Below, one piece after another: positions 17,056 to 63,509 of a stretch of DNA of 64,000 nt (the first letter of the stretch is position 1; each line of letters begins with the position of its first letter). The DNA is from Candidatus Poribacteria bacterium (GTDB lineage: Bacteria > Poribacteria > WGA-4E > WGA-3G), in assembly GCA_965209095.1 (NCBI GenBank), contig OZ242381.1, forward strand, positions 4,417,784-4,481,783. Reading direction: 5' to 3'. The notes under the pieces were generated by a model. It was not told the origin of the DNA. It did no database searches and was given only the letters and a program-made list of their open reading frames with translations. The translations under genes and the position numbers were made by a program.

Positions 17056-17379
17056 TTACCTCTTCCAGTTGCCTCTATCATATTCTTCATGTGTGAGTAT
17101 ATGTCTAATAGAGACTTCCTGCCTTTTGTAATTAATGAATGCAATAAGGCGTACATTCCTGCCGATGTTGAAAACTGTCAATGTCGTCTTCTCTCCTGGA
17201 TGAGAAAACTTTCCCGCCCGGACTGGGGCCGGATCCGCTTGAGGAAACGTATCACGCAAATCTGTAATAGATTCGAATGTGCTCTCCTCCATCAACTCAT
17301 ACCACCGCTCAAGTCCTCGTCTGATTGTCGGATGTCTTTTGGCAAATTTATCCAGTTTTCTTCGTCCAATGATATGCAT
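17056..17379 (-). CDS. higB: Type II toxin HigB (RelE/ParE superfamily, HigB_toxin family)
   Basis: MHIIGRRKLDKF..HP....LERWY.......F....LRDTFPQAD...TVFNIGRNVRLIAFINYKRQEVSIRHILTHEEYDRGNWK matches the HigB consensus throughout, with a 12-aa insertion. Confidence 0.85.
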   Translation of the reverse strand: MHIIGRRKLDKFAKRHPTIRRGLERWYELMEESTFESITDLRDTFPQADPAPVRAGKFSHPGEKTTLTVFNIGRNVRLIAFINYKRQEVSIRHILTHEEYDRGNWKR

Positions 17380-17633
17380 TAGTTGTTTGAGTAGGAACCC
17401 TTTTATATGTAGTTGCGGTGGTTTTTACGAAATTATTATACCATACTAAGACCTAAGTTGTCAAAAATTGGAATAGTGAGAATTCTCAATGTTTGAAAAG
17501 ATTAAAGTTGACTTTTAGATAGAAAATCAAATATAATGGTCAGACGAAAAACAATCTATAATATACCTAATAACCAGGGGATCGTGTATAAAGTCAGTCT
17601 TGTAGCACAAACTATCTGAAACGAAAAGTAAAA

Positions 17634-24542: not shown

Positions 24543-25690
24543 ATGCCAAGACACACTCTTCACCTCACTGATGAACAAAAAACTGCACTCTGCAAAATGC
24601 GAGATAATGGACAACCGGCTTATTTGCGTGAACGTGCTGCTGCGATATTGAAGATGGGCTCAGGGATGTCTCTCCATAAAGTCGCCTTGAGTGGTCTGTT
24701 GAGAAAACGAAAACCCGATACTGTCTATGACTGGTTGAGCCGGTTTCGCAAGCAAGGCATTCAAGGGCTCTTTCAAAAATCTGGCAGAGGCAGAAAACCT
24801 GCGTTTGCTCCGAAGTCCGAAGAAGACGCAGAGGCAGAGTTACAAAACATTGTGGGCATGTCGCCAGATACCATCTCGGGACATGCGACGCGCTGGACAT
24901 TGCGACAGATCAAGGTAGCAGTGCCGGGGTTGGCTCACATTTCTGTGTCGGGTGTGCATCACATTCTCTCGCGGCTCGGCATTAGTTACAAACGTGGTAG
25001 AACCTACATCCATAGTCCTGATGTTGCGTATAAGGAAAAAATGTTATACGTTTCTCAGGCGTTGGCACGAGCGAAGCAAAACCCGACACCTATGTTGCTC
25101 TATACGAAGATGAGTTTGCTTTTTACCGGCGTCCCACATTAGCTAAAGATTGGACAGAACGTGGCACGAAAAAACCGCTTGCTCATCAGGGACTTGGTTC
25201 ATATCTGACATGCTTTGGGATAGGTTCACTGAACGCACACACAGGTGATGTCGTTTACCATCAAGTAGAGCGTGCCACCGTGTTAGCGACACATGCGTTT
25301 TACACAGCAGTTTGTGAAAGGTATCCCAATGCGAAACACATTTATATGATACAAGACAATCGTCCTATTCACCTCCCTGTCCGGCTCTTAGAAGCACTTT
25401 TGCCACAGAAATCGTCGTTTCATAAACCACTCCCACCGAGTTGGGAGAAAGGTGCTACGAAAATAGGAAAACTACCTCAGTTGCCAATAGAGATAGGACA
25501 ACTACCGACCTATGCGCCGTGGACGAACCCGATTGAAAAACTGTGGCGATGGGTGCGTCAATCCGCTGGACATTTACATCGTCTCACTGATGAATGAGAA
25601 ATCCTTCAACAACGGATGATTGCGTTCATGGAACAGTTCAAAGGGGGTTCACAAAAACTCGAACGATATGTTGGATTATCACCCGATTAA
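24543..25690 (+). mobile_element. IS630-family transposase pseudogene (at least 2 frameshifts)
   Basis: HTH N-terminus. DDE region YEDEFAFYRRPT...IQDNRPIH...WTNPIEKLWRW is split across three frames, with breaks near 25095 and 25595. The C-terminal ...FMEQFKGGSQKLERYVGL lies in a third frame. Confidence 0.7.
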
Positions 25691-33522: not shown

Positions 33523-33578
33523 GGTGTCACACCTCAAAAGCAATTAATAAATCATAGGAGGAAAATCCGAAGCGTGCA

Positions 33579-33777
33579 GGGTGTGTAAAGTTTTTGGCAA
33601 AGGTTATCTCACGTTCAGACACATCGTAGGGGCGAGGTCTCCTCGCCCTCGTTGGAACACATCCTATCCATCAGCAGTAGTTGGGGTGGTAATCAGGCGG
33701 AGAGACCCCGCCCCTACGTGCAGTGCCAAAAACTTTTCACATCCAAGCGTGCATGGGTGTGAAAAGTTTTTGACATG
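33579..33777. repeat. MITE-like palindromic element, copy D (near full-length, with an extra terminal TIR copy)
   Basis: TIR GGGTGTGTAAAGTTTTTGGCA ... TGCCAAAAACTTTTCACATCC, plus a second copy GGGTGTGAAAAGTTTTTGACATG. Internal hairpins GTAGGGGCGAGGTCTCCTCGCCC and GGAGAGACCCCGCCCCTAC. Confidence 0.65.
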
Positions 33778-38817: not shown

Positions 38818-39138
38818 ATGCACATTTCTAAACATTTCTTGCTTGATGGAGTTACCTGCATGGATATTGGGTTTATATGGGACGCAGATAAATATCAAGA
38901 GGTGCAAAAGAAACATAAAGTCCAATTTTATGAAGTTGTTTCTGCATTTGATGATAATAATGGATATGATGCCCCTGATCCACAAAGACATCCTGACCGT
39001 TGGATGTTCGTTGGAAAGACTGTAACCAATCGTGTACTAGTTATAATTTATGTTGCAGAAGGTCAAGAAATGCATCGTTTAATTATGGCTTATGAGGCTG
39101 AGGGAGAACTTCTCAATGAATACTACAAAAGAAGTTGA
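38818..39138 (+). CDS. brnT: BrnT-like toxin (DUF497 family)
   Basis: FIWDADKYQEVQKKHKVQFYEVVSAFDD....DRWMFVGKTVTNRVLVIIYVAEGQEMHRLIMAYEAEGELLNEYY matches the BrnT consensus (W-D..K...KHGV.F.E...VF.D...R....G..L.VV.T.R....RIISAR.A...E...Y). Alternative start at 38860. Confidence 0.75.
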   Translation: MHISKHFLLDGVTCMDIGFIWDADKYQEVQKKHKVQFYEVVSAFDDNNGYDAPDPQRHPDRWMFVGKTVTNRVLVIIYVAEGQEMHRLIMAYEAEGELLNEYYKRS

Positions 39139-40477
39139 ATTTGATTATGAGACATACACTCGGGAAAATGCTCCCGATCCGTCACAAATCAGAAGTGGAC
39201 CTGAAGTACATAAAAGACGACGTGAAGCATTCAAAGCACGTTTAATCAATCATAATAACATGGAAATAAAACGTGCAAGAGAGATGCGTCACACTTTTAT
39301 TTCATATTGTCATGAGAATAAATCTCAGGTAGATCGACTTTGTCATGCACTTACTTCAAATGGTGTAACTGTATGGGTCGATTGGAACAATATTACTCCA
39401 GGTATACCTTGGAAGCATGCAATACAACAAGCAATTAATTACGGTGATCTCTTTGTTGCATGCTTCTCAAAAGAATATAACTCTCGTGAAAAGACTTACA
39501 TGAATGAAGAACTTACAATTGCAATTGAGAAGCTTCAACAAAAGCCACATGATAAGATATGGTTCATTCCAGTAAAATTGAACGATTGTGAAATTCCTGC
39601 CATTGATATCGGTGAAGGAGACACTCTAAAAGACCTTGAATATATTAATCTCTATGAAAACTGGGAAACTGGCATTCAACAGATACTTGACATTTTGCCA
39701 ATTAAATCATCGGAAACAACTGAAGATCAGATCATTGTAGATAATGACTGTGTCCTGTTCCGTTCAGTTGACGGGAAGTATTATTTCATACCGTTTCAAG
39801 AGATCCGTTGGGATTCAAAGGAGATTACACTAACACTATCCCCAAATACTGATGAACAAACTGCATTTTTATGTTCTTTGAGAAAAGGAAGGCATGATGT
39901 TCTTGCATTTGCACATTCGGATGATGCAATGTGGGTAAAACCACGGGAAGTAACACAGGTCTCTTGTGAAGGAAAAACTACGTGGGAAGTTATACTCAAT
40001 GAGGATACAACGGGTAAAACATATAAATATAAGCCTGAGAAGTCTTATCTGGATAATATCTCATTAGACCAGATTAGCCTGATGCGGGCAAAACGACTTC
40101 TGCTTGATGAAAAGTTAGAAATAACATCCAAATCATTAGGATACAAAACAGTATTTGATAAAATGTTATTGGAAACACAGATACGTGGTGAACTCTCATC
40201 ACAATATGGAAACAGACTTCAAGCACTCACCTCTCCTATACCAGAAATATATAAACTATACAGAACAAAACCAGAGACATTTATAAAGTTCGCAAGGTTG
40301 ATTTCAATTCTACATTTAAAGTTATCAAATACAATTGAAGATGTAATACAATTAGACTTGAAACTCATAAATCCAATTGAATTACAAGTAAGATTTAAGG
40401 GACGACGATCATGGATTTTTGTAAATGATAACCCTGCTACAATAGAATTTGAAGGTATCTGTTCACTGCCCGATTGA
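39092..40477 (+). CDS. TIR-domain protein with BrnA-like N-terminal leader and unknown C-terminal domain
   Basis: TIR core FISYCHENKSQVDRLCHALTSNGVTVWVDWNNITPGIPW...LFVACFSKEYNSREKTYMNEEL...IWFIPVKL. The N-terminus EFDYETYTRENAPDPSQIRSGPEVHKRRREAFKARL resembles the DUF4415/BrnA leader. The start overlaps the brnT 3' end by 23-47 nt. Confidence 0.7.
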   Translation: MRLRENFSMNTTKEVEFDYETYTRENAPDPSQIRSGPEVHKRRREAFKARLINHNNMEIKRAREMRHTFISYCHENKSQVDRLCHALTSNGVTVWVDWNNITPGIPWKHAIQQAINYGDLFVACFSKEYNSREKTYMNEELTIAIEKLQQKPHDKIWFIPVKLNDCEIPAIDIGEGDTLKDLEYINLYENWETGIQQILDILPIKSSETTEDQIIVDNDCVLFRSVDGKYYFIPFQEIRWDSKEITLTLSPNTDEQTAFLCSLRKGRHDVLAFAHSDDAMWVKPREVTQVSCEGKTTWEVILNEDTTGKTYKYKPEKSYLDNISLDQISLMRAKRLLLDEKLEITSKSLGYKTVFDKMLLETQIRGELSSQYGNRLQALTSPIPEIYKLYRTKPETFIKFARLISILHLKLSNTIEDVIQLDLKLINPIELQVRFKGRRSWIFVNDNPATIEFEGICSLPD

Positions 40478-40500: not shown

Positions 40501-40785
40501 TTAACACCTACATGGTGTTGCATTGCATTTCGGACATCCCTCAACATAAATATTCGCAGCATCTTCAAGTGAAATACCAAGAAGGCTTGCTAAAGTAGAT
40601 AACCAAGCAAACACATCAGCAATCTCTTCCCGCAAACGCTCCTTATCGTGCGGTTCTTTGCGGATCTCCTTTGCTAATTCACCGACCTCTTCAACGAACC
40701 ATGCGAAAGTTAATGGAACACCTCGTTCTGCATCTCTTTTGAAATAGATTGCTTCAATCTGTTGTTGAAATTTTTGAATTGTCAT
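40501..40785 (-). CDS. MazG-like nucleotide pyrophosphohydrolase (small all-alpha NTP-PPase) with C-terminal Cys cluster
   Basis: FAWFVEEVGELAKEIRKEP...REEIADVFAWL is typical of the MazG/HisE-like EExxE/D motif. C-terminal CPKCNATPCRC. RBS GGAGAG upstream. Confidence 0.6.
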   Translation of the reverse strand: MTIQKFQQQIEAIYFKRDAERGVPLTFAWFVEEVGELAKEIRKEPHDKERLREEIADVFAWLSTLASLLGISLEDAANIYVEGCPKCNATPCRC

Positions 40786-43661: not shown

Positions 43662-43707
43662 TTGAAATATGAAAATGGGTATGATTATCGGTATCATACC
43701 CATTTCA
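43662..43707. terminator. Bidirectional terminator hairpin
   Basis: AAAATGGGTATGAT-TATCGGT-ATCATACCCATTTT, perfect 14-bp stem. Lies between the convergent lactonase and selW-like genes. Confidence 0.6.
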
Positions 43708-43712
43708 AAAAC

Positions 43713-43943
43713 TTATAACTTATCAATTGCAGTGGAGATCTGGTCTTCAGTAGGGAATTTCCTTTGCTCAAGTTTGGAGAAAAGCAATTCCTCATCAACA
43801 TATACCTCAAATGCTCCACCACTACTTTCCACAAGTTTTACTTTCTTAACCTGACCACTATATTTTTTTTCTAAGGCTTCTGCCAAACTGGCTGCCCGTG
43901 GTTGATAGTTTCAGGATGTGCAATACTCTATTCTAATATCCAT
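43713..43943 (-). CDS. selW: SelW/Rdx-family selenoprotein with in-frame UGA (Sec) in CxxU motif
   Basis: Manual translation gives MDIRIEYCTS-U-NYQPRAASLAEALEKKYSGQVKKVKLVESSGGAFEVYVDEELLFSKLEQRKFPTEDQISTAIDKL*. TGA at 43911-43913. AGGAGG RBS 9 nt upstream of the ATG. A short hairpin GCCAGUUUGGC lies just 3' of the UGA. Not in the ORF track because of the TGA. Confidence 0.75.
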
Positions 43944-44211
43944 CTGGTATTTTTCCTCCTAAATGTACTGAGAATACAACATAATTATACCAGATTCTGT
44001 TGAAATTTGCAAATATCTTGATTTTGTAGGGGTATGTAAGTTTCTGCACAAACTTCCTATTCTCCCTTGTCCTGCTAAATCAACGCCAAATAAGCGTTTG
44101 GCATGCTCCATGATTTATACCGTTGATTTGGATTCCCGACTATCACCGAGTTAAGCCGCGATTCGGAGATCGCTCGGACAGAAGATATGTCTACTTATTT
44201 TCATATTTCAC

Positions 44212-44253
44212 CAAAAATAAAAAGGCAGATACTCATAAAGGATACCTGCATCT
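44212..44253 (-). terminator. Rho-independent terminator (conserved motif, copy 2 of 3)
   Basis: On the minus strand it reads GCAGGTATCC-TTTATGA-GTATCTGCC-TTTTTATTTTT, 3' of 44282..45250. Confidence 0.6.
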
Positions 44254-44281: not shown

Positions 44282-45250
44282 CTACTGCTTGAGTGTTCCC
44301 CACACTACTTTTTTTTTGTTTTTGGGGGATACCGGCAACACGTCATTGTCTATCCAATCCGCCATATACTCATTTACAGCAGGTGTGTTTGTCAAGTTCA
44401 CCATTTCACCTGTAACAAGATGATACCGGTAGAGGTCATACTTCACAGCACCCGGATCATCTCTATTCCAACGCTTGCCTGACATCAACAGATATTTTCT
44501 GCCCATAAAACACGCACTATGGATTAGCCAGTCGTCGGGTGTATCTACAACTTTCCGTCTGTTATTTTTTATATTATGAATGACAACTTTTTCTGTATGA
44601 CCATTCCATTCGTCATACAGAACAGATTGGCTATCAACAGACCAGCTCGGAAAATTACGAAAATGTCCACCGACACCTTTGACAAGTTCATGTTGGTTGC
44701 TCCCATCGGCATGCATCAGATGGATTGTGGTATGCCCGTTGATGTTGTCCCGATACGCAATATATTTACCATCAGGTGACCAAGCCACTTCTGCTGTCAA
44801 TGAAACTGTGCGCGTCAGTCGCCGTAACTCCTTTGTTTCGATATTTATCGTCCAGGCATCATTTTGAGCCGTTCCCGGTTTTTTAAGCCGGTCACTTGTG
44901 AATGTGAGGTATTTCCCATCCGGCGACCACGACGGTTTATAATCGCTATGATCTCCCTCGGTAACCTGAAATTCACCAGTGCCATCGCTATTAATAATAT
45001 ATATAGCGAACTTTTGTGGCCACTTCGGTACCCCTGGTGGTCTTCCATAAAAAGCGATCTGCTTCCCGTCCGGAGACCAAACAGGCCACGCGGCACTCCT
45101 CCCGTCTACGCTTTCGACTAACATTTTGACGTTACGCCCGTCATCGTCCATCACATAAATATCTGAGCCAGATTTAAAGACGATCTTTGCGTGCGTGAGT
45201 GTCGGCAACAATAACAACAAGCAACATAAGATGAAACTTTGCGATCGCAT
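44282..45250 (-). CDS. Secreted TolB-like PD40 beta-propeller protein (paralog of 346..1362)
   Basis: Signal peptide. WSPDGKQIAFY, WSPDGKYLTF, WSPDGKYIAY repeats. Confidence 0.7.
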   Translation of the reverse strand: MRSQSFILCCLLLLLPTLTHAKIVFKSGSDIYVMDDDGRNVKMLVESVDGRSAAWPVWSPDGKQIAFYGRPPGVPKWPQKFAIYIINSDGTGEFQVTEGDHSDYKPSWSPDGKYLTFTSDRLKKPGTAQNDAWTINIETKELRRLTRTVSLTAEVAWSPDGKYIAYRDNINGHTTIHLMHADGSNQHELVKGVGGHFRNFPSWSVDSQSVLYDEWNGHTEKVVIHNIKNNRRKVVDTPDDWLIHSACFMGRKYLLMSGKRWNRDDPGAVKYDLYRYHLVTGEMVNLTNTPAVNEYMADWIDNDVLPVSPKNKKKVVWGTLKQ

Positions 45251-45356
45251 GAGTTCCCTCCATTTTTACGGTGTATCCATAGGCACAGTGGGTATACCGT
45301 GCCTATGGTTGTTCTCTATAAAATAAAGCAACACGAACTTCATTACACTTTTATTC

Positions 45357-46298
45357 TTAGTCGTCATACACATCGACAAGGTAGGATATTGTGTAGACAC
45401 TTAAATCCCACCTATAAATATAGGCAGTGATTTTATAGAAAACCCTATCCTGATCCCCTGGATGATTCGGATCATCGACATCATCAGGGAAGCTGGTGGT
45501 CATAGTTGCCTTTCTCGTTACACCATCCCCCCAATCCGCCTCAACGAATGTGCCATAGGCACTTGTATCTCCAGGTGCCTTCACATACCAATAGACTGCA
45601 TGATATAGGATGTCTGTATATACCAGTGACTGCCAACTATCCCGTTCTTCATCGGTTCTTACTGTGCAATCGTCAGAAAAGGTTTCGCCATCCGTTGTCG
45701 GCCCGATACCTTCGAGTTGCTCAACATCATCTTCTGGATCGTGTTCAAATTCAGTTGAGTAAGAAGCCTCCCAAGTTTCTTCCTGATGAAACCCAGTCAC
45801 CCTGAGTGCTATATTAACAGACACCATGTATCTCTCGTTTTTTTCTATAGGTTTTGCATCGCCACTGGGTCTTAGACACTCGACATGTAAGGTAGCGTTT
45901 TTAGAATCGCTGTGGATAACATTCCACCAATTCGTGTCCTCATCATTCTTTTGTACTTGACCATAGATAGGTTCTTCGGTATGAGGAAGATAAGCATTAC
46001 CTTCCAGGTCTAAGATTTCGAGGCGTAACTCACCGTTATAGATTTTCCCTCTCAATTGATCGTAGTTGTGAACATAAAAACTGCCATCAACACTGACAGA
46101 GCCATCACCAGCATTATAATCGAGGCTATCAATAGAAACATAGACCGAAACGCGAGCATTACCATCTTTATCCACTAATTTCGTGGGTGGATGTCCATCT
46201 AAAGCTAACTGAGCGGAAACACAAGGTGTTAGCACCATCCCGAACAGAAGGAAAGATGTTATCGCGAGTGCAATAACTCCCAATTTTATATTATTCAT
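45357..46298 (-). CDS. Secreted hypothetical protein (WYV...GDG domain family)
   Basis: Signal peptide. Carries YWYVKAPGDTSAYGTFVEADWGDG, which is shared with the giant protein (VKWYVKPPADTSDRGSLVETDTGDG). Confidence 0.45.
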   Translation of the reverse strand: MNNIKLGVIALAITSFLLFGMVLTPCVSAQLALDGHPPTKLVDKDGNARVSVYVSIDSLDYNAGDGSVSVDGSFYVHNYDQLRGKIYNGELRLEILDLEGNAYLPHTEEPIYGQVQKNDEDTNWWNVIHSDSKNATLHVECLRPSGDAKPIEKNERYMVSVNIALRVTGFHQEETWEASYSTEFEHDPEDDVEQLEGIGPTTDGETFSDDCTVRTDEERDSWQSLVYTDILYHAVYWYVKAPGDTSAYGTFVEADWGDGVTRKATMTTSFPDDVDDPNHPGDQDRVFYKITAYIYRWDLSVYTISYLVDVYDD

Positions 46299-46530
46299 TT
46301 GAATCTCCTAATATTGACATGCTAAAAGCATATCTAATGATTAATCGGGTTCCCCATCCTTGTTCGGTAGACCTTCCACCAAAGATAATAAAGATTTGGG
46401 GCACCCTGGCGACTAAACCAGAAACTCTCTAAATTAATATTGAGAAGGGGCCCCATCTTGAGGTTTCTGTTTTAGTCGTTAATTATATTGTACACTATAT
46501 TAATTTTTTGTGCAACAACTTTTTTTAGAG

Positions 46531-46786
46531 TTAATCACTTTTATTGTGAATTACTGTTTGGCAGGTTGAAAATAGGTGTGGTAGGGTTGTTATTATTGTG
46601 GAATACGATTTTGATGATTTCTGCTGTAGCGACTTGATGTTTTGTGCGTTCCCCATCTTTGCTCTGCGGGGTTTGAATTGTGAAAGCGCGGACTGATTGA
46701 CACCAAAATGATTTGCGATTTCGGTAATTGTTTCACCGTGATAGTTTCTGTAGACAACTTCTACGAACTCGGATTCAGTTTATACG
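46531..46786 (-). pseudogene. Transposase HTH-domain remnant (no start, no catalytic domain)
   Basis: The reverse complement translates to ESEFVEVVYRNYHGETITEIANHFGVNQSALSQFKPRRAK.... It is preceded by an in-frame stop. Confidence 0.3.
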
Positions 46787-46872
46787 TATTTTCATCACAT
46801 AACGTTATATAGGAAAGTTATTGTTATATGAGGGGTGTTATACCATTTCGCATAAATGAGTGTGTCCAGTTA

Positions 46873-47033
46873 TTGCACAAACTTCCCATTCTCCATTGTA
46901 GTGCAATGTCTCTGTGTCCTGCCATCTCTCAATTCATCTGCTATAGCGGGGCGCAGAGCCCTCGACAAATGCCAAACACGCATTTGGCACTACAATGAGA
47001 AAAGTCCTATCTGTGCAATAACTGGACACACCC
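46873..47033. repeat. Degenerate MITE-family copy F
   Basis: CATTGTAGTGCAATGTCTCTGTGTCCTGCC ... GGCACTACAATG ... ends GGACACACCC. The 5' flank TTGCACAAACTTCCCATTCTCC also occurs at 44055-44080. Confidence 0.45.
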
Positions 47034-47094
47034 ATTTTGTAGCAGGGTTATTTAGTTTTCTGATTTTCTGCTGTATTTGTTACAAATGTTAATG

Positions 47095-47200
47095 AATTTA
47101 GATCGGGTTTCGCTTGTGAAGTCGCCATGGTAGTAGGCATGCTCCGTGTGCTGTCCACACGAAGGATAACGGCACACGGCGTGTGCCTACTACTTTGCAT
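47095..47200. repeat. Long imperfect hairpin
   Basis: GTAGTAGGCATGCTCCGTGTGC ... GCACACGGCGTGTGCCTACTAC. Confidence 0.4.
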
Positions 47201-47340
47201 TGCTACTACATAATCTAATTCATCAATTGACAATTTATAAAACTAAATAACCCTGATTTTGTAGATATCTATACAAATAATGGTGACATTTATATATGTT
47301 TGTGTTATGCTTAACCTAAATTCAAAATTCTAAGGAAATT

Positions 47341-48152
47341 ATGACCGAATTTACAATGGAGGAAATATCAATGAAATTCGTGAGTTATTTTTTCACATTT
47401 ATCCTTTTTGCATTTCTAATGATTGGCTTAACTTTACCAGCATTAAGTCAGGCTGAAAAGGCAGATGATTTGATTGGACATTGGACCTATGAGAAGGGTG
47501 TTGAATTAGAAGACCTTACGGGTCATTTTGGTGATATTGAACTAAAGGGGGCAGAAGTCAAGGATGGAAAACTGCATATTGGGAACAATTTATGGGCATT
47601 AACAACTGGATATAAAGGTCCACAGATTGGACCTGATAAAACTTTAGTTACCTGGCTCTATTGGACGATCTCAACGTCGAAAACGGTGCGACAATCGCAG
47701 TAAATAAGAGTAGCTCGGACACATTTGATGCAATTGTTTATGCTGAAAAGCATGCAAAACATTGGATGGCAGGTAGCAGTTTTTTCAGACGTACACAGGA
47801 CGCACCTCATGGAAAACCTGAGACGGAAACTGGTAAACTGATACAATTGGCAATTTCCTACGAAGATGTCAACAACGAAGCAAAAATCATGATATACCGT
47901 AATGGAGAGATAATTGGAGACTATACAAAAGGTCCAATTAAAACATGGACAGAAGGCGATGTGGAAGCACTCTTCGGACCACGTGCTCTTATTGCTGGAA
48001 CAGCGCACGGTTGGATTGTAGCACGCGTAGAAGATGCACGAATATACAATGCCGTTCTCAGTGAGGATGAGATAAATAGTTTAGAAGCGGATACGCTTGA
48101 TGTTGAAGCCCGTGGTAAACTTGCAACGATCTGGGGAAAGATAAAGAAATAA
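47341..48152 (+). pseudogene. Secreted concanavalin/LamG-like domain protein, interrupted by a 1-nt frameshift near 47655
   Basis: ORF 47341..47703 (signal peptide ...KTLVTWL) continues in the adjacent frame as LDDLNVENGATIAVNK...FDAIVYAEKHAKHWMAGSSFFRRT (ORF 47661..48152). Confidence 0.5.
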
Positions 48153-50868: not shown

Positions 50869-51110
50869 ATCCTTTTCGTGCCATTCTCTCATTTATCTAA
50901 CAATGGTATATTAGGTGAGAGATTTAGGCAATCCTCCTTCAATAATGTATCAACACCTTACCATAACTCATTAATTTCGTCAATGTATTATTTCATCGCG
51001 ATGAGAGATTCCAAAAATGCTTGGAAGAAGGGATAAACGTACTCTCTTACGTGGAAAGATGTATCAATAGAGGCATGAAAGAAAGTTTAGGTGAGAAATA
51101 ACAGGTAGGA

Positions 51111-51148
51111 AATAAAAAAGGCAGATACCCAAAAAGGATACCTGCCTA
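51111..51148 (-). terminator. Rho-independent terminator (conserved motif, copy 3 of 3)
   Basis: On the minus strand it reads GGCAGGTATCC-TTTTT-GGGTATCTGCC-TTTTTTTATTT (11-bp stem with 2 G.U pairs), 3' of 51169..54795. Confidence 0.65.
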
Positions 51149-51168: not shown

Positions 51169-54100
51169 TTATGGTGCGGTTGTCTGTGCGACTCTTGAAG
51201 TTCTGCTTTCCCCGACACCGTTGACAGCCCGCACTCTAAATCGATAGACTTCTCCGGTTTCTAATCCTGTAACCGTATACGAAGTGCTTGTGCTGCCCGT
51301 AGACGTGTAGTCTGTCCATTTTTTCCATCCGTTATCATATTTGCAATAGGCGACTTTATAGTCTGTAATCGGGCTGCCGTTCGCGTCCGGTGCTGTCCAT
51401 GTGAGGACAATGGAGCCAGTGGTGCTGCCCGCTGCCGCGCTCACGCCTGTGGGTACATCCGGTTTTTTCGCCTTTGGTGTTTCTGAAAGTGTCTCTGTGC
51501 TGGGTCCTGTACCGACAGCGTTTCGTGCTCGGACTTGGAACTGATAAGTGGTGCCATTGGTCAATCCCGTGACAAGATATTCGGGCAATTCTACGTTTGC
51601 GTTTCCCGCCGAAGCCCAATCGTTCCAACTGCCACCGCTTTGCCGATACCGATATTCGTAGTCTGTTATCGGGGTGCCGCCATTATATGCAGGCGGGTCC
51701 CAATAGAGGTCCACCGCCCCATTGTCAGAGGCCGTGCTGAAGTATGCTGGCACGCCCGGCACAGCCGTATTCGTTGGGGTCGCTGATACGGTCGCAGCCG
51801 TTCCCGCTCCGCTCTCGTTTGTGGCGACTACTTCAAAATCATAAGTGGTGCCATTGGTGAGTGAGGTGATGGTCACAGAGGTCTGCCACTGTTCTGTACT
51901 CCAAGAACTCCACGTGCCACTGTTTTGTCTGTATCTATATTGATAGTTGATGGTGCCACCCCCATCATCTGCGGGGTAACTCCAACTGAGGTAGACACTC
52001 GCATTGCCCGCCACTGCCGCCAAGTCTTGCGGGGCGGAAGGAGCTGTGATACTTTGCATGGTGATGACCGCCTTATTTGAAGTCGTGCTTGCACCGATTG
52101 GATTGACAGCACTTATCATAAACGCATACGTCTCCCCCGGTGTAAAGCGATACAGGTTCACTGAAGTGCTTATGCTATTCAGGGTGCCTAACTCCTCCCA
52201 CGATCCATCGTTCTTTGTGTCTATATGATAGCGATAACTTGTGATGGCTCTGCCCCCATCATCTACAGGGGCATCCCAGTCCAGATACACCGTCGTTCGA
52301 TCTACGCCCGACACGGTGAGATTGCGCGGGGCACTCGGCACAGTGGGCGGAGACGGCGCGGTACCCAAAGTCGTAAAAGTAAACGCCGCAGATGGATCGC
52401 TATAACCCACAGCATTCTTGGAACGCACAACGAACTCGTAAGAGGTCCCCGCAGTTAGCCCCGTGATCGTTTCAGACGTGTCCGTACCCGCAGATGTCCA
52501 CGTGCCTTCCTCTGTCGCACCAGAAACCTTATAACGATATTCGTAGTCTAAAATAGCACTCCCACCATCTGATGTAGGTGCACTCCAAGACACAACCACT
52601 GACGTATCCCCTGAAGGCGTTGCACTGCTAATAGAGGGGGAACCAGGCACCGTGGAGAGCGTGACCGTATAACTCACTTCATAAGTGCCTGAACTCGTCG
52701 TCACATACGCAGTGATCACATAAGCCCCAGACACAGCATCCGCAGCAAACGTGTAACTCAAAGATGCCATCGTCGCACTCCCATCCCCCGTATCCGTCTC
52801 CACAAGCGACCCCCTATCAGACGTGTCCGCAGGTGGCTTCACATACCACTTCACTGAGGTATACGCAGCAGGAGCAACGCAATTCGAGGTGTGACTACTA
52901 CCTGCTGTACAGGTGTAGACATCATCTGAGGAGGTCAACGTGCTTTGATTACTTGATGTGCCATCGTCGTCTGGTGGTGACCACTGCGGTTTGGGAAATT
53001 TCTGTAGGTCCGGTTTCGGTGCGTTTTTATGTGCTTCAGCTACGCTTTTACTCACAAACAGATATTCAACATTATGGAGACGCGCAAGATAACTGCTGGA
53101 CTGCTCATACATCGCTAAAATGGATGCCGAAGTTATGTCATAACGATTACCACTACTGCCAAGATACCCGATGATCGCTGTTTCTGAACCGTAATCCATA
53201 ATGGTGCTACCAGAGTCCCAAACGGAAAGAGGTGATGAACCACACCTTGCATGGGGACCATGACGTAACGACGGGGCACGATAGAGATTATGCTCATTCG
53301 GTTTGTCCGGATCCTTTTCATACTGACAGTAAGTGATATTATATCTTACGCGATCATGGTAACGGGGACGCGCAATGTCCGGTCTTTCACTGCTATAGAT
53401 AGGTTCAAACGGATGAAAAAGTCCAACAGCATGCCCAATTTCATGTCCAATCACCAAGCTTATTAGTTTGGAAACGCGATAATTGGTTGTGGATGGAACC
53501 TTTGCAGCATAAGACTCGCCAAGCCGAATTCGCTCACTTTCTGTCGCAGACTCAGCGTCTTGAATAGCTTCTTCGTAAATTTTAATGACTTCCATCGCAT
53601 GGACAGGACCCGGCACCGGCGGTTTAACCTCACCAAAAAGTGTAGGGAGTGTATCAATTTTACTATCTTTATCCACCCACAGGGCATTCTGTTCAAGAAA
53701 TGTTTTCAGTCCCCCACAAGAATTGAAGTTAACCCAGGGATCCTCACTTCCTGGAGCAACAGTAGAAAGAGCCTTCGGATCCGGGTTAGGCAGCCTATAT
53801 GCCTCATTAAAGTTTATTTCGTGCTTTACAATGGGGGCAGGTAACCCACTTGCATCCCCGATACCCTCGTCCATCTCGGAAAAGATAAAGAGGTCCTTAT
53901 CAGTGGGATCGATAGTGGTGTGTTTCCCTTTCACATAGAAACCACGGTATTCTTCAAACACCGTGAACCCATCGCCCGTATAGATATTGTTCCCCGGTCC
54001 CGTTTCCGTATCATCCCACGGTAAGTAATTTGCGTTCTTGTCAAGGGTGCTTGATGTCTCATCGTAAGTCTCTGATTCATCTGATTCAGGATCCCACCCA

Positions 54101-54795
54101 TCCGCAATATCATTACTATTATTGTCCCAAGGAATACTAATCTCGTTATCGGCTGAATCTGACGGTGTAAAACTCCCTGAAAGCGGATCCTTATAGTTAA
54201 AGGTAGCACTCGCAGATAAAATGCCGAATGCACCATAATCGTTCACACGGACAGAGACCAAAACACTACTATTATTGCCATTCGTTTCTGTCAGTCCTAA
54301 GCCTATCTCAACTTCACCGGACCCATTCGGTTTCTCACCCGGAACCGCTATCGGATCCGTCACCGTATACAAATATCCCGAACCACTCGCATTATCCTTT
54401 CTGCGGAAAAACAGATCGGAAGAAGCAGCTGTATCAATATCTTCGTTTGCGGTGCCGTCTCCGTCCGCGTCGCCTTCTTCCTTTCCATTAAAATTCATGC
54501 ACACACCTTTCAATTTAGAAGGGGTGCCAAGATCAAACGTAAACTCTACATTCCGAAATGCCGTAATCGCTTGACCATCCGCTGTCTTGCCTTTGATGAT
54601 GGCAGTAAATAACGCATTCGTTTGATATTCAGGTCGCCACCCCAACCATGCTTGCGGGTCCGCAGGTTCCAGCTCTAACTCAAACGTGGGGTCATTCGAG
54701 TCTCCGTTTGCTTGTGCAAAACAAACATGGAAGTAAAAGGGTGAACATATAAAAAGCACAAAAAGTATCCGTAAAATAATAGTCTGTCTATTCAT
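51169..54795 (-). CDS. Secreted metzincin-type zinc metalloprotease with about 5 tandem fibronectin type III domains
   Basis: Signal peptide. HEIGHAVGLFH matches the metzincin HExxHxxGxxH motif. The C-terminal half holds roughly 90-aa repeats (...VYLDWDAP.DDGG..I..Y.YRY...G.W...) that look like FN3. Also contains the WYVKPPADTS...GDG and GDGFTVFEEYRG motifs. Confidence 0.7.
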   Translation of the reverse strand: MNRQTIILRILFVLFICSPFYFHVCFAQANGDSNDPTFELELEPADPQAWLGWRPEYQTNALFTAIIKGKTADGQAITAFRNVEFTFDLGTPSKLKGVCMNFNGKEEGDADGDGTANEDIDTAASSDLFFRRKDNASGSGYLYTVTDPIAVPGEKPNGSGEVEIGLGLTETNGNNSSVLVSVRVNDYGAFGILSASATFNYKDPLSGSFTPSDSADNEISIPWDNNSNDIADGWDPESDESETYDETSSTLDKNANYLPWDDTETGPGNNIYTGDGFTVFEEYRGFYVKGKHTTIDPTDKDLFIFSEMDEGIGDASGLPAPIVKHEINFNEAYRLPNPDPKALSTVAPGSEDPWVNFNSCGGLKTFLEQNALWVDKDSKIDTLPTLFGEVKPPVPGPVHAMEVIKIYEEAIQDAESATESERIRLGESYAAKVPSTTNYRVSKLISLVIGHEIGHAVGLFHPFEPIYSSERPDIARPRYHDRVRYNITYCQYEKDPDKPNEHNLYRAPSLRHGPHARCGSSPLSVWDSGSTIMDYGSETAIIGYLGSSGNRYDITSASILAMYEQSSSYLARLHNVEYLFVSKSVAEAHKNAPKPDLQKFPKPQWSPPDDDGTSSNQSTLTSSDDVYTCTAGSSHTSNCVAPAAYTSVKWYVKPPADTSDRGSLVETDTGDGSATMASLSYTFAADAVSGAYVITAYVTTSSGTYEVSYTVTLSTVPGSPSISSATPSGDTSVVVSWSAPTSDGGSAILDYEYRYKVSGATEEGTWTSAGTDTSETITGLTAGTSYEFVVRSKNAVGYSDPSAAFTFTTLGTAPSPPTVPSAPRNLTVSGVDRTTVYLDWDAPVDDGGRAITSYRYHIDTKNDGSWEELGTLNSISTSVNLYRFTPGETYAFMISAVNPIGASTTSNKAVITMQSITAPSAPQDLAAVAGNASVYLSWSYPADDGGGTINYQYRYRQNSGTWSSWSTEQWQTSVTITSLTNGTTYDFEVVATNESGAGTAATVSATPTNTAVPGVPAYFSTASDNGAVDLYWDPPAYNGGTPITDYEYRYRQSGGSWNDWASAGNANVELPEYLVTGLTNGTTYQFQVRARNAVGTGPSTETLSETPKAKKPDVPTGVSAAAGSTTGSIVLTWTAPDANGSPITDYKVAYCKYDNGWKKWTDYTSTGSTSTSYTVTGLETGEVYRFRVRAVNGVGESRTSRVAQTTAP

Positions 54796-57086: not shown

Positions 57087-57190
57087 AAATCGGGGTTAGA
57101 AACCCCTCCTACAAGAAGTTGAAACCATTCATTCGACTTGTGGGTAATAGTAAGCCCCTACGTGCAGTGCCAAAAACTTTACACACCCTC
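57087..57190. repeat. Chimeric MITE-family copy G
   Basis: Half of the 12882-13020 module (ATCGGGGTTAGAAACCCCTCCTACAAG) joined to a copy-A/D-type end (CCCCTACGTGCAGTGCCAAAAACTTTACACACCCTCC). Confidence 0.55.
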
Positions 57191-63392: not shown

Positions 63393-63509
63393 CATTGTAG
63401 TGCGGGGTCTCCGTGTCCCGCTATTGCCGGTAGATTGAAGGATGGCGGGGCACGGAGACCCCGCACTACAATGGATGGTCAGTAGTTGGTGCCAAAACAT
63501 CACACATCC
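63393..63509. repeat. Partial MITE-family copy E
   Basis: CATTGTAGTGCGGGGTCTCCGTGTCCCGC ... GGCGGGGCACGGAGACCCCGCACTACAATGG ... GGTGCCAAAACATCACACATCC. Internal hairpins as in copy B. Confidence 0.55.

Follow-up and report, generated by a model that had tools for sequence, protein, structure and literature searches.

The 64,000-nucleotide stretch analysed here (the window) belongs to contig OZ242381.1 of the Candidatus Poribacteria assembly GCA_965209095.1. On its minus strand we found a chromosomal gene for a 76-residue SelW-like protein of the Rdx family, which appears to be monocistronic and in which an in-frame UGA would encode selenocysteine (Sec) by means of a Sec insertion sequence (SECIS) element located inside the coding sequence (CDS). 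We put the probability of this reading at about 0.9. The gene and the elements associated with it are the following:

43713..43943, minus strand: CDS of the SelW-like (Rdx family) selenoprotein, 76 codons plus TAA, with the predicted Sec at codon 11
43911..43913, minus strand: in-frame UGA, the predicted Sec codon (U11 of C8-T-S-U11), assigned from the conservation of the TGA and its alignment to Cys
43920..43922, minus strand: codon TGC of the invariant Cys8, the presumed resolving partner in the CxxU redox motif
43955..43960, minus strand: Shine-Dalgarno sequence AGGAGG, 11 nt 5' of the ATG
43984..44012, minus strand: putative sigma-70-like promoter, TTGCAA-17 nt-TATAAT with a TG extension, matching the consensus at 10 of 12 positions
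43874..43897, minus strand: predicted bacterial SECIS GGGC-A-GCCA-GUU-UGGC-AGAA-GCCU, from RNAfold and RNAalifold, overlapping codons 16-24
43882..43892, minus strand: apical stem-loop GCCA-GUU-UGGC (GCCAGUUUGGC), the top part of the two-stem hairpin at 43897-43874
43672..43706, minus strand: 14-bp hairpin where the SelW-like and lactonase genes converge, a candidate shared terminator from its fold energy

The frame runs from 43943 to 43713 and comprises 76 codons followed by TAA; its translation reads MDIRIEYCTS, the internal stop, NYQPRAASLAEALEKKYSGQVKKVKLVESSGGAFEVYVDEELLFSKLEQRKFPTEDQISTAIDKL and the terminal stop. The sole internal stop is the TGA at 43913-43911, codon 11, which lies in the motif C-T-S-U. 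An earlier reading of the letters alone, hereafter the original prediction, had proposed this frame with a single in-frame TGA and an AGGAGG ribosome-binding site upstream, and both are present, the latter at 43960-43955. A GGAGG core 5' of the start codon is kept in nearly all of the 80 orthologous loci described below, as is the start codon itself. The list of open reading frames (ORFs) for the window had indeed missed the gene, as the same prediction pointed out, since it contains only a truncated ORF of 57 aa (43713..43886) that begins with a TTG at 43886.

For the profile searches, Cys was substituted for Sec in the query. The protein matches Pfam Rdx (PF10262) with an E-value of 8.8e-25 and 87.2 bits (cutoff 22.6) over profile positions 2-73 of 74, and it scores 78.2 bits with NCBIfam TIGR02174 (CXXU_selWTH, cutoff 34.2) and 90.4 bits with the NCBIfam equivalog NF041051 (SelTWH_Campy, "SelT/SelW/SelH family (seleno)protein", cutoff 88). 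The sequence search of the PDB gave seven matches, every one an Rdx-family protein (3dex, 2fa8, 2ljk (MIEN1), 2obk, 2p0g, 2ojl, and 2oka). An alignment to SelW-like proteins, suggested with the original prediction as a check, places the TGA codon on the second Cys of the CxxC motif of Cys-type homologues in each of the three printed PDB alignments (3dex, 2fa8, and 2ljk; CTQC and CEPC). We modeled the structure with AlphaFold2 using the Poribacteria alignment as input, with the Sec residue written as Trp, following the database entry. The model (predicted local distance difference test score 92.1, predicted template modeling score 0.81) shows a β-α-β-β-β-α order, with a strand at residues 3-8, a helix at 14-27, strands at 36-40, 45-49, and 52-56, and a helix at 66-75. 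C8-T-S-U11 is located in the loop that connects strand 1 (3-8) to helix 1 (14-27). According to Foldseek, the model superimposes on the bacterial SelW-related structures 2fa8, 2obk, 2ojl, 2p0g, and 3dex with template modeling (TM) scores of 0.89-0.92 and a root-mean-square deviation of about 1.1 Å; the top 23 matches in the PDB are all Rdx-family structures, mouse SelW (2npb) among them, and thioredoxins come next. The protein is thus predicted to adopt a thioredoxin-like fold. Membership in the Rdx family, which the original prediction had claimed, is secure, with all three profiles scoring above their cutoffs and the modeled fold in agreement.

A genome scan with one genome per GTDB species yielded 406 relatives, of which we fetched the best 80 loci. 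Their records are titled as metagenome-assembled genomes of Poribacteria in 77 cases and as "uncultured bacterium" in three, and their proteins are 58-96% identical to that of the window. Codon 11 is TGA in all 81 sequences (the window and the best 80 of the 406 relatives) and a Cys codon (TGY) in none of them; homologues with Cys at this position, which the original prediction had named as a sign of a true stop, are accordingly missing among the fetched loci. Cys8 is invariant in the 79 distinct sequences (TGC in 78, TGT in one). Upstream of the TGA, I5, E6, and Y7 are invariant as well, and positions 9 (T/S) and 10 (S/A) are almost so. The codons differ synonymously, with ATT 60, ATA 15, and ATC 4 at codon 5, GAA 42 and GAG 37 at codon 6, TAC 46 and TAT 33 at codon 7, and ACC 37, ACA 18, ACT 18, and ACG 2 for Thr at position 9. 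Amino acids that are kept while the codons vary in this manner are to be expected when codons 1-10 are translated in frame with codons 12-76, and selection acts on both sides of the TGA. Neither a 57-aa product nor a pseudogene or sequencing error would leave such a synonymous pattern upstream of the TGA, and these readings are disfavoured. Judged from these alignments, the UGA at codon 11 is most likely read through and does not terminate translation.

The original prediction also placed a hairpin where a bacterial SECIS would be expected, and one is found at 43897-43874. Bacterial SECIS elements are described as a lower and an upper stem separated by an internal loop and capped by a small apical loop whose first or second base is a G (PMC1088965, PMC13582414). 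In the hairpin, a bulge and an internal loop lie between the lower and the upper stem, and the apical loop comprises 3 nt, of which G is the first. The lower stem begins 14 nt 3' of the UGA, and the loop G at 43888, the presumed SelB contact, lies at +23 nt. RNAalifold applied to the 81 sequences returned the same structure as the single-sequence RNAfold prediction. Codons 16-23 encode R-A-A-S-L-A-D/E-A (R-A-A-S-L-A-E-A in the window protein) in the first part of helix 1. Their normalised codon entropy averages 0.06, compared with 0.63 for the 54 other codons (Mann-Whitney p = 1.7e-5), and the codons used there are not the preferred ones: CGG accounts for 12.5% of the Arg codons and GCC for 11% of the Ala codons in the genes of the window. 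All 512 pair cells in the hairpin hold standard pairs. Free variation is confined to unpaired bases (the bulged A, the internal loop, and position 3 of the apical loop), and the rare changes at paired bases (pairs 26-49 and 28-47) preserve standard pairing, either from G-U to A-U or G-C, or from G-C to G-U.

A covariation test within the Poribacteria was uninformative because no pair changes on both sides, and therefore we fetched six distant Sec-type SelW-like genes from metagenomes (loci L081-L086, 35-54% identity), all of which carry an in-frame TGA at the motif. Five of the six form a helix of different sequence in the same register, such as CCGUCA/UGGCGG, CCCUUA/UAAGGG, and UGCUGUCA/UGGCGGCA, and in the sixth (L083) the predicted hairpin is displaced by a few nucleotides. 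In an alignment of 13 sequences, the six-pair helix is 83% paired, compared with at most 40% in any slid register; compensatory changes occur in three of the six pairs, and the first loop base is an invariant G. The covariation score of 0.267 exceeds the value of 0.147 for shuffles and was reached by only two of 500 shuffles. Synonymous suppression and some compensatory changes in distant relatives thus accompany the hairpin, and the sequence comparisons indicate that a constraint at the RNA level acts on it. The hairpin core GCCAGUUUGGC has one copy in the window, a count that carries no weight because about 0.64 copies are expected by chance. One of the distant genes, at L081:58-279 (TARA Oceans ERZ2774818 scaffold_244800; P0049, P0057), contains two in-frame TGAs (TAT TGA GGA ATG TGA). 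Its motif is U-G-M-U in place of CxxU, and a hairpin of six pairs comes next, again with a GUU loop. The Global Ocean Sampling (GOS) paper reports UxxU for the Prx-like family, not for the SelW-like family (PMC2398784).

These features suggest how the gene would be expressed. Translation would start at the ATG at 43943 and reach the UGA at codon 11, where the hairpin at 43897-43874 would act as a SECIS and recruit the SelB-GTP-Sec-tRNA(Sec) complex via its apical GUU loop, so that Sec is inserted in place of termination. The ribosome would then pass through the hairpin, whose codons also specify R-A-A-S-L-A-E-A in the first part of helix 1. A minimal thioredoxin-like protein would result, with C8-x-x-U11 at the N-terminus of helix 1, and C8 and U11 would presumably cycle between the selenol/thiol and selenenylsulfide states, as expected for a thiol-dependent oxidoreductase. 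By analogy with the established Sec pathway of bacteria, Sec insertion, SelB binding, and a redox role are all probable.

Several results weigh against this reading. The RNA fold after the UGA, suggested as a check with the original prediction, does produce the hairpin at -8.0 kcal/mol in the single sequence, but this energy is thermodynamically unremarkable (z = -0.98). Compensatory double changes are absent among the Poribacteria sequences, and the wider covariation set comprises only 13 sequences that we selected ourselves. Conservation of the A-x-S-L-A peptide is a partial confounder of the covariation, because the alignment is codon-registered. A weak hairpin of four pairs is present at the SECIS position also in the Cys-type gene L088:301-534 (P0082) and in the Gly-type gene L089:301-618 (P0047, C-S-V-G, with the codon GGT); both may be relics of a Sec-type ancestor. 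The tRNA scan found no tRNA in the window and none in loci L001-L060, hence no tRNA-Sec there. A tblastn search of the window and the 80 loci with E. coli SelA and SelD as queries gave no match (SelB was not searched). Further TGA-interrupted genes, sought in the gaps of the window and as recurring TGA contexts across 1.6 Mb of loci, were not found. The other TGA contexts that recur across the loci look like off-frame translations of conserved genes. The Rfam scan of the window at gathering thresholds returned no match, and hence no curated SECIS family.

Published tables support the presence of the Sec machinery in Poribacteria at the level of the phylum. According to Slaby et al. 2017 (PMC5649159), most bins of sponge symbionts contain SelA together with SelB, and Table S4 of that study lists, for Ca. 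Poribacteria WGA-3G, bin70, and bin44, respectively, 2, 2, and 4 counts of COG1921 (SelA), 1, 1, and 1 of COG3276 (SelB), and 1, 1, and 2 of COG0709 (SelD). In a 2026 survey, Poribacteria is one of the phyla listed as having group 4 hydrogenases that contain Sec (PMC13582414).

The conserved UGA, the SECIS-type hairpin, and the selection on the flanking codons would fit equally well if a SelC-like tRNA(ReC), using the same hairpin, recoded the UGA as Cys and gave a CxxC Rdx protein. A passage in PMC13582414 cites bacterial tRNA(ReC)-like tRNAs that, with a SECIS located downstream, read UGA as Cys. However, such a tRNA is not known from Poribacteria, and the published tables for the phylum list the Sec biosynthesis genes SelA and SelD. 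If the residue were Cys, a change from TGA to TGY would be nearly neutral, yet it is never seen among 80 species, which makes Cys recoding unlikely; we give it a small chance only. Still less probable is that the TGA is a true stop, left behind by a pseudogene or a sequencing error or preceding a functional ORF of 57 aa from the TTG at 43886. A product of exactly this length does occur in NCBI and JGI records as well as in the ORF list of the window, but it would lack strand 1 and the entire CxxU redox motif, and 80 species keep the ATG, the Shine-Dalgarno sequence, and the ten upstream codons, the last with synonymous variation. Since all 81 independent assemblies have TGA here, neither a sequencing error nor a recent pseudogene can be the explanation.

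The least probable explanation, to which we assign next to no weight, is an alternative genetic code that assigns UGA to Trp (table 4) or Gly (table 25). It could account for the W that stands at the Sec position in many database entries (P0001-P0005, P0007, and others) and for the CxxW motif in 84 of the best 150 cluster representatives. The DNA behind seven W-type products that we checked (P0049, P0025, P0027, P0030, P0029, and P0026 among them) nevertheless carries TGA, and these seven products do not translate to the query under table 11. In the window, TGA terminates six of the 39 ORFs of at least 200 aa and is therefore an ordinary stop in this genome; ORFs of at least 150 aa under table 11 cover about 80% of the sequence, and long ORFs of up to 1208 aa are intact. 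Genes such as those for GAPDH, TIM, and HisD are also intact, with no in-frame TGA seen, and codon 11 aligns with a catalytic Cys. The usage of stop codons excludes an alternative code. Insertion of Sec at codon 11 is the reading that we retain, in agreement with the original prediction.

A bolder version of the Sec reading, which we hold only tentatively and consider somewhat less probable than its opposite, is that the SelW-like gene represents a strictly Sec-type core gene of the phylum Poribacteria. It would have no Cys form, a near-invariant SECIS with the loop G fixed at +23 across the family, and an A-x-S-L-A peptide partly dictated by the RNA. A variant in which a tRNA(ReC)-type system reads the UGA as Cys is less probable. 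If this were true, the sponge symbionts would depend on selenium, and the gene would offer a clean natural example of dual coding for protein and RNA.

The appearance of this gene in public databases is misleading. A protein search returned 22 relatives, each of which is either a 57-aa truncation starting after the TGA or a full-length protein (76 aa, in one case 86 aa) with CTSWNY, and none has Cys at the position. We searched 1.84 billion cluster representatives and obtained 283 relatives at E ≤ 0.001; besides the CxxW proteins mentioned above, the best 150 of them include 39 with CxxC, nine with CxxG, and two with WxxW. The W at the Sec position (P0001-P0005, P0007-P0012, and the CxxW representatives) is an artefact, because gene callers switched to code 4 on short contigs, and the same SelW-like gene on long contigs is cut to 57 aa in public protein sets. 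We considered CxxG as a corresponding artefact of table 25 and rejected this for P0047, which has a genuine GGT codon. The public records carry the names "hypothetical protein" for a truncated product (RKU08796.1) or "selenoprotein W-related protein". The annotation error is thus systematic: the NCBI and JGI entries present a 57-residue stump without the active site, and metagenome pipelines write Trp for Sec. This matters to anyone counting selenoproteins or alternative genetic codes in metagenomes.

The genomic surroundings of the gene are those of an ordinary chromosome. The window contains genes for Ccm cytochrome c maturation, a 2-oxoacid:ferredoxin oxidoreductase, GAPDH, TIM, HisD, and an EPSP-synthase-family enzyme, in addition to TruA, SAICAR synthase, GFO/IDH/MocA oxidoreductases, and TPR and fn3 proteins. 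The only conserved neighbour of the selW-like gene is a convergent gene for a 7-bladed lactonase (36 of 80 loci), which provides no evident functional clue across the 80 loci. Between the two genes, the 14-bp hairpin at 43706-43672 folds with -17.6 kcal/mol (z = -3.84) on the minus strand and with -19.2 kcal/mol (z = -3.2) on the plus strand. The original prediction regarded this site as a bidirectional terminator. A stable hairpin on both strands bears this out in part, but the rule-based terminator scan of the window did not call the hairpin at 43672-43706, and its U-tract is imperfect. From its sequence, a role as a bidirectional or shared terminator is plausible.

Upstream of the selW-like gene, the region 44282-47660 comprises a PD40/TolB-like gene, a gene for 313 aa without a Pfam match, and a repeat-bearing spacer of about 1.3 kb. 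It is missing from most of the syntenic Poribacteria loci that we checked, in most of which a LamG-like gene is located about 500 nt upstream of selW, and it looks like an insertion specific to this genome. GC-rich palindromic intergenic repeats of a type resembling repetitive extragenic palindromes (REP) or miniature inverted-repeat transposable elements (MITE), with the cores ATGGCGGGGCACAGAGACCCCGCACTACAATGG and GCCCCTACGTGCAGTGCCAAAAACTTT, are found at several places in the window, and a partial copy lies just upstream of the selW promoter:

19-206, 2460-2576, 33578-33744, 46854-47037, 57154-57190, and 63393-63506: GC-rich palindromic repeat family
44039-44075: partial copy of the GC-rich palindromic repeat

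A different repeat of 36 nt with 89% identity occurs at 44214-44249 and 51110-51145, just 3' of the minus-strand PD40 gene and the gene for a 1208-aa fn3 protein, respectively, and may be a shared terminator-type motif. The latter gene (51169-54795, minus strand) encodes a eukaryote-like repeat protein with five or more fibronectin type III domains, a kind of protein that is typical of sponge symbionts. At 24543-25690 (plus strand), an ORF with helix-turn-helix domains (HTH_32, HTH_29) precedes a stretch similar to DDE transposases that lies in a different frame and is interrupted by a TGA, and this looks like a frameshifted or decayed transposase of the insertion sequence (IS) type IS630. The window further contains a HigB-family toxin ORF (17056-17424, minus strand; Pfam E-value 8.7e-20), a 461-aa TIR-domain protein (39092-40477, plus strand; TIR_2 E-value 1e-24), and a small MazG-like pyrophosphohydrolase (40501-40785, minus strand), which are of the defence or toxin-antitoxin type reported to be enriched in sponge symbionts.

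The biology of this locus is already known, in that it adds a Poribacteria member to the well-known SelW-like family. SelW-like CxxU proteins form the most abundant prokaryotic selenoprotein family in marine metagenomes, with 48 Sec and 7 Cys forms in the Sargasso Sea (PMC1088965) and 427 Sec and 56 Cys forms in the GOS data (PMC2398784). In the searchable literature, we found no SelW-like selenoprotein described for the phylum Poribacteria. What is added here is a Sec-type SelW-like gene together with a highly conserved SECIS in every Poribacteria genome fetched, which supports published indications of selenocysteine use by sponge symbionts.

Like the bacterial SelW-like selenoproteins, a family that is mostly of the Sec type with few Cys homologues, the protein is a single Rdx domain of about 75 residues with an N-terminal CxxU and a stem-loop with an apical G within the CDS. 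It differs from them in its host, Candidatus Poribacteria, and in the SECIS, which is almost invariant over the 80 fetched genomes. The Cys-type Rdx structures (2fa8 (Atu0228), 2obk, 2ojl, 2oka, 2p0g, and 3dex) share the fold and have I-x-Y-C-x-x-C where the Poribacteria protein has IEYCTSU, but they carry CxxC instead of CxxU, are longer by about 25-30 residues, and are only about 26-32% identical. Mammalian SelW (2npb) and MIEN1/C17orf37 (2ljk) also belong to the Rdx family and have the thioredoxin-like fold; the loop that joins strand 1 to helix 1 carries CxxU in SelW and CxxC in MIEN1. The structural match is weaker (TM score of about 0.65). Eukaryotic SelW depends on a SECIS in the 3' untranslated region and on SBP2/eEFSec, whereas the Poribacteria element resides inside the CDS, as in bacteria. 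The SECIS of E. coli fdhF, the paradigm of a SelB-binding element, is a stem-loop that follows the UGA directly within the CDS; a G (and U) in its small apical loop is essential, and one base is left unpaired beneath its upper stem. The Poribacteria hairpin is alike in these features. Compared with the fdhF element, it is shorter (8 bp in two 4-bp stems) and has the loop GUU rather than GGUC, and its loop G lies about one codon further from the UGA.

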